NCBI RefSeq assembly: GCF_030028105.1
Contig: NC_092382.1
Coordinates: 92,510,295 to 92,574,294, forward strand
Reading direction: 5' to 3'
From: Mobula birostris
Taxonomy: Eukaryota
DNA: 64,000 bases
Shown here: positions 2,531 through 19,849 of the stretch, in pieces
How positions within the stretch are numbered: the stretch's first letter is position 1
Layout of the letters: every line of letters starts with the position of its first letter
Translations under genes and position numbers: made by a program
Notes under the pieces: generated by a model
Told to the model about the DNA's origin: nothing
Database searches by the model: none
The model's input: the letters and a program-made list of their open reading frames with translations, nothing else

Positions 2531-3301
2531 TTAGCCGTGATTGAATTGTGCAGTGGGCCAGATGGTTTGAACAGCCTCATTCTGCCCCTCCCGCCTGTTG
2601 ACTCAATAGCCCTCGTAAGGGAGGGCCCCCCCCCCCAAAGCTGCCAGTTTACCCCTTCCTTACCATGCTGCGCCCAGAGTCCTGACGACCACTCTGGTAA
2701 AGGCCTCCCTGTTGCCACCTGTCCCTCTTCTCTTCAGGCAGACCTCTGCTGGATCCTGCCTGCCTCTGACAAAATTACCCCCCCCCCCGCCCCGTGGGTA
2801 ATGGTGCCTGGCCTCTGGGCCTGTCCTCTCTGTTTCTCTGGCGTGTTAAGGTCACGGTCTGTGTGACCGTTCAATGGTCTGATAACAGTGGGGTAGAAGC
2901 TGTCTTTCAGCCTGGTGGGACGTGCTTTCCAGCTTTTGTATCCTCTGCCCGATGGGAGGGCGGAGAGAGAATGACCGGGGTGGGCAGGGCCTAATGGAGG
3001 CAGCGGGAAGTCCAGCCGAGAGTCCACCGCTGCTTGATCACTGGCGAGCGTTGTGGGAGAGGTTGACGGATGTGAGATTGGGGTGAGGGGTGCGGAGTAT
3101 CGGGCGGCAGGGGAGGAGGGGTTAGGAATTGAGGTGCTGGCCCCTGCGGTGAGGAGAGCGGGTCGCCGAAAGGATTCAGGAATGGCGATGTCGAGAGTTA
3201 ATGGAGCTCTGCTTTCTCCTCCTCGTCCCCCTCCCCAACCACTTGCTCCTCCCCTCTCCGCCTCCTTGGTGCCCCCACCCTCTTGCTCCCCACCCCCTCA
3301 G

Positions 3302-3445
3302 CCCCGGTGCTGGATGAGTCGGTCGTGGTGCAGCTGGCGGAGATGGGGTTCCCGATGGAGGCGTGCCGGAAGGCGGTCTTTTACACGGGCAACAGCGGTG
3401 TGGAGTCCGCCATGAACTGGGTCATGTCTCACCTGGACGAGCCAG
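3302..3445 (+). CDS. USP5: Ubiquitin carboxyl-terminal hydrolase 5, internal exon (UBA1 domain)
   Basis: Translates (A)PVLDESVVVQLAEMGFPMEACRKAVFYTGNSGVESAMNWVMSHLDEP, matching USP5 UBA1; cag acceptor and gtgggt donor, phase 1-1. Confidence 0.95.
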
Positions 3446-3699
3446 GTGGGTGGGGGGATGACGTCTGGGAGGGGTCCGCAACTCACAGCTCCCAATGCTG
3501 GTGGGTGGGGAGGAGCTCATAGCTCTGCCCCCTCCCCGTCGGACCCCCTTCTCTCCCACTGGTCACCTCTCCCCTTCTGGAGCCCGACACCCGCCTCTCG
3601 CCGTCCGCGTCTGGACACCTGTTTCTCCACGAAATCCCAGATGATGGTCTTACTGTCCCCTTGTAGGAAGCCATCACTGGCTGTCTGCCCCTACACCAA

Positions 3700-4225
3700 C
3701 CCCCGCCGTCCCCGTCTGCTTACCCCCCCGCCGTCCCCGTCTGCTTACCCCCCCGCCGTCCTCGTCTGCTTACCCCCCCGCCGTCCCCGTCTGCTTACCC
3801 CCCCGCCGTCCCCGTCTGCTTACCCCCAGCCGTCCCCGTCTGCTTACCCCCCCGCCGTCCCCGTCTGCTTACCCCCCCGCCGTCCCCGTCTGCTTACCCC
3901 CCCGCCGTCCCCGTCTGCTTGCCCCCCCGCCGTCCCCGTCTGCTTGCCCCCCCCGCTGTCCCCGTCTGCTTGCCCCCCCGCCGTCCCCGTCTGCCCCCCC
4001 GCCGTCCCCGTCTGCCCCCCCGCCGTCCCCGTCTGCCCCCCCGCCGTCCCCGTCTGCCCCCCCGCCGTCCCCGTCTGCTCCCCCCTCGCCGCCGTCCCCG
4101 TCTGCTCCCCCCCCCCGCCGCCGTCCCCGTCTGCTCCCCCCCCGCCGCCGTCCCCGTCTGCTCCCCCCCCGCCGCCGTCCCCGTCTCCTCCCCCCCCCCC
4201 CCCCCCGCCGCCGTCCCCGTCTTCT
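3700..4225. repeat. GC-rich minisatellite in a USP5 intron (unit ~21-26 bp, ccgccgtccccgtctgc(tta)cccccc)
   Basis: About 20 directly visible tandem copies with variable C-run length. Confidence 0.95.
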
Positions 4226-4406
4226 CTCCCCATCATCATCTCCGCCCCTCCCCTATACTGTAGCTGACTGTCTCCCGTCATTGCCTGTGTCTCTTGGTCT
4301 CTGATCCCCTTGGCGTGTCACCACCCCGTTCACCCCCCCCCCTCCCCCCACAGCACCCCATCTCTGTGTACGGGTCCCTGACCCTCTCTGCCTGTGCTCC
4401 CCCCAG

Positions 4407-4552
4407 ATTTCGCCCAGCCTCTGCTCTTGCCGGCGTGCGGCATCCCTGGATCTGCGGCAGCTGCCCCCGAGCCTCCCCCGGAGGAGAGCGTGGCCACCAT
4501 CTCCTCCATGGGCTTCTCCCGGGATCAGGCCCTGCGGGCCCTCAGAGCTACG
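4407..4552 (+). CDS. USP5: USP5 internal exon (linker and start of UBA2)
   Basis: (D)FAQPLLLPACG...PPPEESVATISSMGFSRDQALRALRAT; ccccag acceptor, gtgagt donor. Confidence 0.95.
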
Positions 4553-5077
4553 GTGAGTCCGCGAGGGATGTGACGGAGGGCAGCCCGAGGGGGATGGCGG
4601 AGAATAACTCCCTGCCCGATCTCCCTCCATCAATCAGCCGCCTTCTTCGCAATAATCCCCAAACATACAGCTCTGTTCTTCACCCCCAGTGAATAACCCC
4701 ATGAATACATCCGTCCCTCCTCCACTCGCTCAGCTCAGTCTCCCCCCAACCACACACCCATCGACTGCTCTTCCCTCCATCTGCTCAATCTCCCTCGAAT
4801 AGGCACTCTCTCCAATCTCCTCCACTTTATCCTCTCTGCGTTTCATTCACTGCTTATTCCCTGTCTTGTCAGCCTCAGAATTTTCCACCCTCCTCCTGCT
4901 TGAACATCCCCCTCGCTCCTGCCTCTCCCCGCCTCTCTCTCTCCCCTCCCTTTCCCTCCCACTCCCGGCTCTGTCCCTCCCCCGGCTTTCTCTCCATCCT
5001 GCCCGCCATGTTACCTGTCCAGTCCGTGTCCTCTCCCTCCCGCGCTCTCATCTCTCTCCCTGTTCCCTCTCCGTCAG

Positions 5078-5231
5078 AACAACAGCGTAGAGCGGGCTGT
5101 CGACTGGATTTTCAGCCACATTGATGACCTGGATGCCGAGGCAGTCATGGACGTATCTGAGGGCCGGTCAGCGGCCGAATCCGTGTCCGAAAGCATGCCG
5201 GCTGGACCCAAGGTCCGCGATGGTCAAGGCA
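5078..5231 (+). CDS. USP5: USP5 internal exon (end of UBA2)
   Basis: NNSVERAVDWIFSHIDDLDAEAVMDVSEGRSAAESVSESMPAGPKVRDGQG; gtcag acceptor, gtaagt donor. Confidence 0.95.
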
Positions 5232-5416
5232 GTAAGTCACTGAGGGTGCACGCCCTACCCTACCTCCGAGGGCAGATGCCAAGTGTCTTCCTGAGTGTGA
5301 ACACCACCTCCCCACACCGTACGTACGTACACACACATATGTACACACACACTCGCGCACACGCTCACACAGACACACTCACACGCACTTTCACGTACAC
5401 ACATGGATATATACAC

Positions 5417-5417
5417 A

Positions 5418-5457
<40 letters not shown>
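5417..5457. repeat. (CA)n microsatellite
   Basis: Direct observation. Confidence 0.95.
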
Positions 5458-5459
<2 letters not shown>

Positions 5460-5564
5460 CAGTTCCCCTATCTGCTGGTGTCTGGTGTGTACACACACAC
5501 CCCAGCACCTGCTGCCTGTGTATCTGCGGACTGTGACCACGCTGGTGTTTGCTTTCTTTCGCAG

Positions 5565-5649
5565 AGTACCAGCTCTTCGCCTTCATTAGCCACATGGGTA
5601 CTTCAACGATGTGCGGCCATTACGTCTGTCATATCAAGAAGAAAGGGAG
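5565..5649 (+). CDS. USP5: USP5 exon with catalytic His box
   Basis: (K)[27 protein letters not shown](R); gcag acceptor, gtgagt donor. Confidence 0.95.
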
Positions 5650-6016
5650 GTGAGTTCGGGCTCATGTCCTCACACCAGTCCAATGCTCCTTGACCTTCTC
5701 TCCAACTCTTTCTCTCCCCTCTGTCCGTCTCTCACTAGTCCCCCCCCGTATCCTTTTTGTCTCTCGCTCCATCTCAGCCCTCATTCGTTCCCCTCGTCCC
5801 TCTCCCCATCACAGTTGCTGAATCAACTTCCACTCCCCTTCACTCTTCTCCCTCTTTACCCTCCTCTTCTCCCTCTCTCTCTCCATCACTCAGCTTCTTT
5901 ACCCTTTTCTCTCTCCCCCCCATCACTGCTCTCTCTTTACTCTCTTCTCTCTCTCCCTAGCCTGCTTTGCCACTCAATAAGGCCATGATCTCATCTCCAC
6001 CTACCTGCTTTTTCAC

Positions 6017-7088
6017 AGAACATAGAACAGTACAGCACAATACAGGCCCTTCGGCCCACAATGTTGTGCCGACCCTCAAACTCTGCCTCCCATATAAGCC
6101 CCCACCTTAAATTCCTCCATATACCTGTCTAGTAGTCTCTTAAACTTCACTAGTGTATCTGCCTCCACCACTGACTCAGGCAGTGCATTCCACACACCAA
6201 CCACTCTCTGAGTAAAAAACCTTCCTCTAATATCCCCCTTGAACTTCCCACCCCTTACCTTAAAGCCATATCCTCTTGTATTGAGCAGTGGTGCCCTGGG
6301 GAAGAGGCGCTGGCTGTCCACTCTACCTATTCCTCTTATTATCTTGTACACCTCTATCATGTCTCCTCTGATCCTCCTCCTCTCCGAAGAGTAAAGCCCT
6401 AGCTCCCTTAATCTCTGATCATAATGCATACTTTCTAAACCAGGCAGCATCCTGGTAAATCTCCTCTGTACCCTTTCCAATGCTTCCACATCCTTCCTAT
6501 AGTGAGGTGACCAGAACTGGACACAATACTCCAAGTGTGGCCTAACCAGAGTTTCTAGAGCTGCATCATTACATCGCGACTCTTAAACTCTATCCCTCGA
6601 CTTATGAAAGCTAACACCCCATAAGCTTTCTTAACTACCCTATCCACCTGTGAGGCAACTTTCAGGGATCTGTGGACATGTACCCCAAGATCCCTCTGCT
6701 CCTCCACACTACCAAGTATCCTGCCATTTACTTTGTACTCTGCCTTGGAGTTTGTCCTTCCAAAGTGTACCACCTCACACTTCTCTGGGTTGAACTCCAT
6801 CTGCCACTTCACAGCCCACTTCTGCATCCTATCAATGTCTCTTTGCAATCTTTGACAATCCTCTACACTATCTACAACACCACCAACCTTTGTGTCGTCT
6901 GCAAACTTGCTGACCCACCCTTCTACCCCCACATCCAGGTCGTTAATAAAAATCACGAAAAGTAGAGGTCCCAGAACAGATCCTTGTGGGACACCACTAG
7001 TCACAATCCTCCAATCTGAATGTACTCCCTCCACCACCACCCTCTGCCTTCTGCGGGCAAGCCAATTCTGAATCCACCTGGCCAAACC
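6017..7088 (-). mobile_element. 5'-truncated CR1 LINE (RT and 3' UTR) in the last USP5 intron
   Basis: GVPQGSVLGPLLF, KFADDTK, EYCVQFWSPH motifs; (gttctat)-type 3' tail. Confidence 0.93.
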
Positions 7089-7247
7089 CACAATTCCCCT
7101 ACTATGCAAAAATCTATCCAACCTTGTCTTAAATATATTGATGGAGACCACACCTTTTTCCATCTCTCCCTCTCCCTCTTCCCCTGGTGACTTGGCTCCA
7201 TCTTTGCCCACTCCCCCTCACTCCTGCGCTTTCTTTCTGCCCCGCAG

Positions 7248-7341
7248 GTGGGTGATCTACAACGACCAGAAAGTCTGTGCCTCCGAGAAGCCTCCCCGAG
7301 ACCTGGGCTACATCTATTTCTACCAAAGAGTCGCCAGCTGA
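7248..7341 (+). CDS. USP5: USP5 terminal coding exon
   Basis: [30 protein letters not shown], the USP5-type C-terminus; preceded by a polypyrimidine tract and cag. Confidence 0.96.
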
Positions 7342-7467
7342 GGATCCGCCAGCCGCCTATTTATTGTACAGACCGAGCCGAGTGACTGGCACTGCCGGGC
7401 ACGTGGGACTTGTCCTGGGGGCCTCAGGGGGAGGGGAGGGGCGGGGAGTGCACCGTTCAGCATTGGA

Positions 7468-7473
7468 AATAAA
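7468..7473 (+). terminator. Candidate polyadenylation signal of USP5
   Basis: AATAAA ~127 nt after the stop codon, with GT-rich sequence downstream. Confidence 0.6.
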
Positions 7474-7559: not shown

Positions 7560-9270
7560 GGGCAGATGGAAGTGGGCAGAGTTAACGGTGATCTTGGCCC
7601 CACTGGATCAGTGCTACTGACCCCACCTTGGAGTCCACACCAGCGATCTTGGCCCCACTGCAGAGGTGGATCGGGACCAGTGGTCCCGGGGCAGAGTTAA
7701 GATTGGCCTGGTCCCCAGAGCGGAGTTGGATCTGAAATACTGGCCCCACGGTGGAGTTTTCACTGGGTGTGTCTCCACTGCACAGGCGGGTTGGTATAAC
7801 TTGTCCGAGAGCAGGGTGGCCAGCTCCCCACTGGGGAGGTCGATCGGGACAGCTGGTCTGTGGGGAAAGACGGGTTAGACCAGACCTTTCTCCACTGTGG
7901 AGGTGTGATCCCAGGGTGACCTCCAGACCAGACCCATCCCCACTGTGTAGGTGGATTAAGGGTGCAGTCTACACCAGATTGATCAGCAACTACAGGAGAT
8001 TGCACCGTGCTGCCGAGTTGGATGGGTCTACTGGTCCCAGGGTGGAGTACACACTGGGCATGTCTCCACCGTGGAGACGGATCCACACTTTTGGTCTCTT
8101 GGCTCAGGTGATTCGGACTACTGATCCCTGGGCAGTGGAGGGTAGGAGGTGGTTCAGACCTACTGGTTCCAGGGTGAAATTGGCAACAGACATGTCCCCA
8201 CTTTGGAGGTGGGTAGGAATTATTGGTCCCAAGGTGGAGATTAGATCAGATAGTTGTCCCACGGTGGAGTGTATGGGGATTATGGGTCCCAAAGTGGAGA
8301 TTAGACCAGACAGTTGCCTCACGGTGGCGTGTGTGGGGATTACTGGTCCCAAAGTGGAGATTAGACCAGACAGTTGCCTCACGGTGGCGTGGATGGGGAT
8401 AATGGGTCCCAAAGTGGAGATTAGAGCAGACAGTTGTCCCACGGTGGCGTGGATGGGGATTACTGGTCCCAAGGTGGAGATTAGACCAGACAGTTGCCTC
8501 ACGGTGGCGTGTGTGGGGATTACTGGTCCCAAAGTGGAGATTAGAGCAGACAGTTGTCCCACGGTGGAGTGTATGGGGATTACTGGTCCCAAAGTGGAGA
8601 TTAGACCAGACAGTTGTCCCACGGTGGCGTGGATGGGGATTACTGGTCCCAAAGTGGAGATTAGACCAGACAGTTGTCCCACGGTGGCGTGGACGGGGAT
8701 TGCTGGTCCCAGGGCAGAGTTAATATTGGCTTCTGCCCCCGCAGGCACCAGCCTGTCTTGTACTGGGCATGTCTCCCGTATGGTGGTGGCTTGGGACTAG
8801 TAGCCCCCAGCGTAGGGCAGCTGCTTCCCCTTGTGGATGTGGATCATGGTGTTTGGTTCGAGGATGGAGTTTAGACCAGAGTATTCCCCACTGGGGAAGT
8901 GGACTGTCTGCTGGTACAAGGGAAGATTTCACACAACGGGTATATCCTAATGATAGAGATGGATTGAAACTGCTGTCCCAGGGTGCAGATTGCATCTCTC
9001 GGGTCCCCACCGGGGAGCTGGTTGCAGGGGAGATAGTGAGTGGGACCATTTCCCAGGGTGGAGATTACACCACACCTGTCCCCCTTGCAGAGTTAGATCG
9101 GGCCTACTGGTCCCAGGGTGGAGATTACACCTCACCTGTCCCCACCGCAGAGATAGATCTGGACTAGAGACTCGAGGGTGGAGATTACACCGCACCTCTC
9201 CCCACCGCGGAGATAGATCGGGACTACCGGTCCCAGGGTGGGGATTACACTTCAGGTTCACCTGTCCCAG
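7560..9270. repeat. 60-bp tandem satellite downstream of USP5; homogeneous core ~8200-8720 with diverged flanks
   Basis: Unit tactggtcccaaagtggagattagaccagacagttgtcccacggtggcgtggatggggat; copies align in register on successive 60-nt lines. Confidence 0.93.
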
Positions 9271-9859
9271 GAATCCATGACACTCGTGTAACAGCGCCCG
9301 TGGGTGTGATCCGCTCAGTTTCCAGCTGCTTACCCTGTGTATTTAAGAAACTGAGCTCCTGCCTCAGCAAGGACCTGCACCCATAGCAATTTGCCTATCG
9401 CCGCTAGAACGACGTGGTTAGTTTTCACCAAATGCCGCGTTGAGGGAAAACATTTTGCCTCCACGGGCTTAAACTCCTAGTGACTTACTGACAGTCGCAA
9501 CACTTTAAATGATCCTGCGCTTCAGATTCGTTGCTGTTCAGAATCAGAAATCGGTACAATTCAGGACCTTTATGTCCAAACCGCGCTCAGCTTGAGGCCG
9601 TGGGAAGCAGCTCAGGTGCAGAGATCACCTCAGGGCGAGTCAGAATTTCAGAGTTGCAACGCAGAGATAACGAGCAAAGAAACGGCATAACGATGAGGCC
9701 CCACTGCTCGAAGTGATCAGAATTACTCGCAGTAGGTAGCCAAAGGAGAAAGGAGCAAAATGCAGCTATCCTGAACGATATCAATGCAGCCGGGCGGCAC
9801 AGTGAGCGCCAGAACGAATAGCCTCTCGCACTAAAAGCTTTTAAAAATACCGCTGGTCA

Positions 9860-18759: not shown

Positions 18760-19460
18760 CGGCCTGTTTGCGACTGCACAGGTGGATTGGAACGACTGAC
18801 CCCAGGGAGGAGTTTCAACTTGACCTGTCCCGACCTGCCTCCCGCTGCTGGCCCCGATGTCCCGGACGAGGCGGTCCTTGGGAGAATCCGCAGGGGAGAC
18901 GCATCTGTGAAATGGACCCGGACCGCAGACATTGCGGCCGTCTCCCGGCTGCGCTTTGGGTTGCGGCTTTATTACTGAACTGGAGCACAGAGGTGACCGG
19001 ATAACTCACCGCGCTCCCATCCACTCCCTGAAATTGAGCCGAGTTGACCCGTAAATAAATGTGCTCGTGAAGCAGCTGAAACTCCTCAGGAAAGCCCTCA
19101 AGTTTGCGAAAGGTCGATTGAAACCAGCTCCTGTGATCTGATAATGGACGGAATTCACAATCAGAGTCAGCCACAGGAGAAGGAAGCAGCCCGCAGGAGA
19201 GGGTGAAGAGTAAAACCACAGACCTTCTGCTGCTCTCCATCCCCGGGTCACTGCGGGCTTCCGCCTTGCGGACCCTTCCCCTCAGTCCCTTACGGACCCG
19301 ACCAGCCACTAAAGTATTGCCTGGCCGTCAGAGCGCCGAGCGGCAGAGTTACAGTGAACGGAGTTAAAACCGTGTCGAGCCAGTCAGATCCCACCGAACC
19401 GGGGCCAGAGCGATCACTGGCCATGTCTGAGCAGAAACGCGGTACATTGTCGGTGATCTC
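18760..19460 (-). promoter_or_regulatory. CpG-rich island-like region around a candidate first exon
   Basis: Locally dense CpG/GC unique sequence between repeat blocks. Confidence 0.45.
19010..19240 (-). CDS. Candidate first coding exon of a secreted protein (signal peptide; possible EPO/TPO-like helical cytokine)
   Basis: gggATGG Kozak context; hydrophobic leader VVLLFTLSCGLL; 77 codons ending at a consensus GCG|GTGAGT phase-0 donor. Confidence 0.5.
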
Positions 19461-19849
19461 TCGGTTCCTATGTGAAGTAACCAGGAAGGTTTTGCCCAGC
19501 CGCGTCAGAATGCCGGTAATTTTGGGAAGGGCAGACAATGTTTTCCCGGTGCAGTATTTTCTTTTCAGCTTTTGGCAATAAGTTGTGATAAACCGATCGA
19601 ACGTGAAGTGACGGTGAACCAGACAGTGCAGTCCGTGGCTATGACTGTCAGCACACAGGCGTGATGTCCAGGAAACTACGCCGACAGCAGTGATAATTAA
19701 TCTGGTACAAATTGAATCAGCCATTCAATCACGTACCGGATTGTACCGGATTGATCTGGTACAAATTCAATCCGGTACATGACTGAATGGCGAAGCAGCG
19801 TCGATGGGCCGAATGGCCGACTTCTGCTCCTACATCTTATGGTCTTAAA

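Follow-up and report, generated by a model that had tools for sequence, protein, structure and literature searches.

What is the short open frame on the minus strand at 19240-19010 of the window, that is, of the whole 64,000-nucleotide stretch of Mobula birostris DNA that was analysed? The sequence-only reading had proposed that it could be an orphan signal-peptide exon of an unannotated cytokine resembling the EPO/TPO family. Cytokines evolve quickly, and those of sharks and rays are often overlooked. The features at this end of the locus are the following.

19010..19240, minus strand: candidate first coding exon, 77 codons, translated from the ATG at 19240
19169..19240, minus strand: predicted signal peptide (about residues 1-24/26), with a basic N-region and an uncharged hydrophobic core
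19010..19168, minus strand: predicted mature part with Cys28 and two predicted helices (residues about 33-47 and 51-70)
19004..19009, minus strand: phase-0 splice donor GTGAGT, by PWM score
18815..19009, minus strand: read-through in the same frame (residues 78-141), which holds a weak acceptor (18904) and a weak phase-2 donor (18824)
18760..19800, strandless: CpG-enriched flank, possible promoter region, from the CpG observed/expected ratio (o/e) in 200-base bins

Translation of the minus strand from 19240 to 19010 reproduced the 77 residues quoted earlier, and the unspliced frame continued to a stop at 18815, giving the 141-aa read-through ORF as claimed. The other signals described for the exon were also recovered: the Kozak ATG at 19240 carries G at both -3 and +4, the phase-0 GTGAGT donor at 19009 has a PWM score of 4.6 (38 of 3779 minus-strand GT sites score as high), and the hydrophobic leader has a best 10-residue Kyte-Doolittle mean of 2.32, which is reached by nine of 389 ATG frames. 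The segment 18139-19719 has no second copy inside the window by self-comparison, in line with its description as unique sequence. The supposed CpG richness applies to the flank, with an o/e of 0.82 over 18760-19600 and of 0.69-0.98 per 200-base bin from 18800 to 19799, but less to the exon itself (0.60), the value for the whole window being 0.47.

How far these signals depart from chance could be judged against the window itself. Among its 389 ATG frames of at least 50 codons, 71 have the Kozak bases, nine an equal leader and 19 an equal donor, and the 19240 frame is the only one to combine all three (1/389), at thresholds that were chosen with the exon already in view. Such a frame also appeared in two of 20 Markov-simulated windows at the same thresholds and in three of 20 at looser ones. 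The frame thus exceeds chance moderately, and these simulations favour the main rival explanation, which we consider possible, somewhat short of an even chance: that CpG-rich single-copy DNA happens to contain a frame free of stops, hydrophobic at its start and followed by a good donor, be it the start of a non-coding transcript or an old repeat of low copy number. The coding statistics point the same way. A periodic coding model, for which 2646 bases from neighbouring exons served as training data, gave exon 1 a marginal score, with 9.6% of 1297 stop-free control frames scoring higher; true exons withheld from training scored from -0.14 to 0.31, and a transposon-derived frame beat exon 1 on this test (3.2% of 2090 controls). 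The amphipathic moment is likewise ordinary, 17% of 500 shuffles being as high. The sequence signal of exon 1 is real but modest, and we read 19240-19010 as the likely opening exon of an unannotated gene for a secreted protein that may be a cytokine.

The exon's immediate neighbours within the window are two recognizable genes. The convergent deubiquitinase gene reported beside it was confirmed as USP5/USP13-type on the plus strand (UBA_7, E 1.7e-20; UCH, E 1.2e-6); we take it to be USP5.

3301..7473, plus strand: 3' exons of the USP5-type gene, with UBA_7 and UCH matches, a stop at 7339-7341 and an AATAAA at 7468

Upstream, a NACHT-LRR gene on the minus strand ends near 26870, and therefore the orphan exon is not part of it. 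This NLR gene (32927-26866, minus strand) sits between the orphan exon and the remaining window and comprises a 590-codon NACHT exon (NACHT, NOD2_WH and NLRC4_HD2) and four or five LRR-type exons; NLR genes of this kind are expanded in cartilaginous fish.

The interval 19000-5600 was read for further exons, with splice sites scored. The earlier statement that no convincing downstream exon exists still holds for the middle of the gene, and is qualified at its end by a candidate last exon at 9334. New in this analysis are this candidate exon, the 60-bp minisatellite behind it and, further on, an AATAAA that overlaps with the 3' end of USP5.

9262..9334, minus strand: candidate last (or next-to-last) exon, with a phase-2 acceptor, PRALLHEC at 9303-9280 and a possible phase-0 donor at 9261
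8947..9261, minus strand: the frame stays open across degenerate 60-bp units until a stop, from frame reading and the unit PWM
7600..9250, minus strand: 60-bp minisatellite, probably 3' UTR or intron, with TRF arrays at 8219-8711 and 9051-9250 and degenerate units to about 7670
7360..7365, minus strand: AATAAA from the hexamer scan, which would end a minus-strand transcript tail-to-tail with USP5
18761..18830, minus strand: solitary copy of the 60-bp unit, the best PWM match outside the array

The 9334 acceptor scores 4.0 and the 9261 donor 3.2, compared with 6.4-7.0 for four true NLR acceptors. The acceptor opens straight onto a 29-residue stretch (31% hydrophobic), whose phase-2 frame reads PRALLHEC (9303-9280) and then GFLGQV, and which by eye fits the last helix of TPO and that of IL-34. 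Patterns for the TPO-like and IL-34-like last helices each occur once in the six frames of the window and in none of 20 simulated windows; they were applied by eye and written after the sequence was seen. According to the chance explanation, the 9334 piece would be sequence unrelated to exon 1 that borders on a minisatellite. Against this, the motif core directly behind the good acceptor is not repeat-derived (7/32 bases match the 60-bp unit consensus), and all the signals lie on one strand, in gene order, in the space that separates two real genes. On the other hand, GQV and the second cysteine fall at the start of the 60-bp repeat unit, and both the likeness to TPO and the case for a disulphide lose force by this.

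The AATAAA at 7365 is one of six minus-strand AATAAA/ATTAAA hexamers in 19300-5600 and is weak alone. It opposes the plus-strand AATAAA at 7468 (window 7341-7473), such that the two transcripts would overlap tail-to-tail by about 100 bases in the USP5 3' UTR. The solitary unit at about 18810, behind the read-through frame, has a PWM score of 15.2 versus 6.0 for the next best match (nhmmer E 0.11); this lone copy ties both ends of the locus together. The unit (9250-7600 and about 18810, minus strand) holds a donor-like CAGGTGAGG, its solitary copy lying 9.5 kb off. Within the minisatellite, a frame at 8796-8104 is open for 230 Ser/Thr/Pro-rich codons and resembles a mucin tail, without an evident in-phase entry. 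Reading the 19240 exon as the start of a secreted protein is reasonable, and is strengthened by the candidate last exon at 9334 and the facing poly(A) signal.

The middle of the putative gene was not recovered. None of the 470 candidate frames in 18960-16700, 13560-12690 and 10100-9430, which were taken as non-repeat, was a convincing middle exon, and a stricter scan of the whole interval found no frame resembling two amphipathic helices with good splice sites. Two pieces that looked strikingly IL-34-like by eye were rejected: 9476-9333, which is antisense to a LINE, and 11965-11792, which lies within a repeat where public contigs of depth about 200-350 span an inserted element. Since two equally cytokine-looking frames proved to be transposon fragments, likeness by eye is weak evidence, and both the absence of a middle exon and these two errors within the same interval favour the chance explanation. 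Insertions are nested in the region 12700-10700, where the remains of a presumed DNA transposon are interrupted at about 12369-11966 by a CR1-like piece and at about 11740-10802 by a Penelope-like element; these element names are our assumption. The second insertion shows an apparent target duplication of 9 bases and is bridged by public contigs. The minus strand of 18760-16700 is TG-rich, highly degenerate and tandem-like, with weak periods near 47 and 84, and an assembly could lose sequence here.

Several spliced models could nevertheless be built. The phases disagree, with phase 0 at the end of exon 1 and phase 2 required at 9334, and a direct splice from 19009 to 9334 shifts the frame and yields 106 aa. 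No missing exon is required if the frame is read through to the phase-2 donor at 18824, which is weak (score 0.0), and joined from there to 9334; the result is a single open frame of 267 aa, about one four-helix-domain span, with cysteines at 28, 157 and 168; an alternative model with a 105-base in-frame intron gives 232 aa. In the read-through part, residues 78-95 are 33% hydrophobic and by eye extend the EPO-like alignment, and residues 96-139 (11% hydrophobic, 27% Gly+Pro) are so poor in hydrophobics that a third helix is ill-suited there.

Searches of protein families and structures linked the exon to no family. Pfam gave no family for the exon, the read-through or their sub-pieces, and the EPO_TPO, IL34, CSF-1, SCF and Flt3_lig profiles were unmatched for these fragment queries, from which the filters drop weak matches; the profile check that had been suggested for the peptide and the 141-aa ORF (EPO_TPO, IL34, Flt3_lig and SCF) gave no match. 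A phmmer search of the PDB with E up to 10 returned no cytokine chain; its matches, at E 1.2-2, were to unrelated chains. In a 5.8-billion clustered protein set (lengths 77-247 and 136-2000 residues), no true relative was found, and none by phmmer against 1.84 billion representatives, where the single match was a tandem-repeat artefact. This lack of a relative in any collection also favours the chance explanation. The HMMER filters discard weak matches, the queries were fragments rather than whole spliced models, and among true USP5 exons, a 29-residue one matched no Pfam family and a 26-residue one was matched. The blanks therefore indicate that the alignment originally drawn to EPO/TPO is not significant by these tools, not that it is wrong: no Pfam family or PDB cytokine chain backs the resemblance, which stands unrefuted because weak matches are filtered out.

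The structure searches gave no link to EPO/TPO, IL-34 or any family. The AlphaFold check that had also been suggested went partly in favour of a helical product: single-sequence AlphaFold2 folded residues 25-77 into two helices (mean pLDDT 69, pTM 0.35), and the 141-aa frame, predicted without an alignment, reached a pLDDT of only 36.6, with no helix for residues 96-139. With respect to a four-helix bundle, only pieces were folded, and two helices are what is seen in residues 25-77.

The likeness to EPO and TPO, judged by eye, begins with the leader and a Cys-acidic-x-Arg-x-Leu start followed by a predicted helix, and resumes in the later Pro-x-Ala-Leu-Leu stretch ending in Phe-Leu-Gly-Gln-Val, which recalls the last helix, with a possible donor where TPO has an intron. 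The neighbourhood, too, is a USP13/GNB paralogue region. In human, EPO lies beside GNB2, THPO on the arm that carries GNB4 and USP13, and GNB3 beside USP5; from these linkages, a sister gene derived from the vertebrate genome duplications could sit here. The differences are considerable. In addition to the lack of any profile or sequence match and of the middle helices, there is one 231-nt open exon in place of the three short exons that encode the leader, first helix and loop, a difference already raised at the outset as a caveat about introns within this segment; intron loss is a possible source of the single long first exon. Phenylalanine stands where the inner cysteines of EPO/TPO, or the second cysteine, lie, the Arg-Gly-Lys receptor motif is absent (the candidate last exon reads FLGQV), and the intron before the last helix is in phase 2. 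Partners for an N-to-C disulphide, Cys28 with Cys157 or Cys168, exist in one possible model, the last cysteine coinciding with the repeat unit. Given the deviating exon layout and the absence of the Arg-Gly-Lys motif, we do not file the locus as an EPO/TPO member.

The reading that we put forward, tentatively and somewhat short of an even chance, is an unannotated four-helix-cytokine-like gene, most likely of EPO/TPO type, with its last exon at 9334 and lying tail-to-tail with USP5. A four-helix-cytokine-derived gene of any sort, live or decaying, is a possibility that we hold with similar reserve; the EPO/TPO type within it is rather doubtful, and the fuller proposal of a third vertebrate EPO/TPO hormone, a genome-duplication sister beside USP5 that was lost in bony vertebrates and lost its 5' introns, is unlikely. 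The sequence itself contains a start, leader, donor, acceptor, motif and poly(A) hexamer, in that order. All of them would belong to one transcript from about 19300 to about 7350; its leader would be cleaved after about residue 24-26 to release a helical secreted product, in which Cys28 may pair with a cysteine close to where the last helix ends. The secreted bundle would then signal via a homodimeric class I cytokine receptor (EPOR/MPL-like, JAK2-STAT5); dimerization with JAK2-STAT5 signalling is textbook knowledge for receptors of the EPOR/MPL type, and CSF1R would be the receptor of an IL-34-like product. No exon encoding the two middle helices was found, and hence either the gene may be damaged in this species or that exon may be missing from the assembly.

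A real first exon of a secreted protein other than a cytokine is improbable in our view. The start, leader and donor signals are family-neutral, and the open 106-aa, 141-aa, 232-aa and 267-aa models can all be built, so that the product might be a lineage-specific peptide, might carry a repeat-rich tail, or might simply be one of the two shorter models (106 aa or 141 aa); however, no piece of any model has a domain match, and the tails are low-complexity or repeat-derived.

The remaining rival takes the product to be a short-chain cytokine of IL-34/CSF1 type that binds a class III receptor kinase (CSF1R, for instance) and is encoded by a paralogue off the IL34 locus. The IL-34 pattern suggested earlier as a weaker alternative fits the same residues about as well by eye, without a profile match: there is a leader of about 24 aa with an early cysteine and an FP dipeptide in exon 1, and the IL-34 last-helix motif P[KR]ALLxxC has a single match in the window, followed 11 residues later by another cysteine. 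IL-34 has five conserved cysteines and two disulphides, and the mudskipper protein has a similar layout, with a 24-aa leader, cysteines at 32, 177, 182, 187 and 197, a Cys32-Cys187 bond, and Cys177 ten residues before Cys187 (PMC7109011). However, neither Pfam nor the PDB gave a match, the motif did not turn up in published paper text, the second cysteine belongs to the repeat unit, there is no evident counterpart of the other cysteine pair or of the basic C-terminal motif, and the middle helices are missing from an uncertain gene model. Furthermore, whale shark IL34 adjoins MTSS1L/FUK/COG4 in a comparative survey, and the linked genes named there (MTSS1L, COG4, FUK, SF3B3 and VAC14) are absent among the in-window neighbours, which suggests that the orphan locus is not the usual place of an IL34 orthologue (PMC7717901). 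The motif alone fits IL-34 as well as EPO/TPO, and our lean to the latter comes from the locus position, through the human linkages; an IL-34-like ligand is accordingly quite unlikely.

According to the same survey, CSF1, CSF3 and the receptors of both are missing from the two cartilaginous fish examined (PMC7717901). If the frame arose by chance, the locus shows plainly how easily an amphipathic frame can pass for a cytokine when judged by eye. If the cytokine reading is true, another ligand resembling EPO/TPO or IL-34 would alter the account of the origins of blood-cell growth factors, and would provide a concrete ligand for testing on shark and ray receptors.
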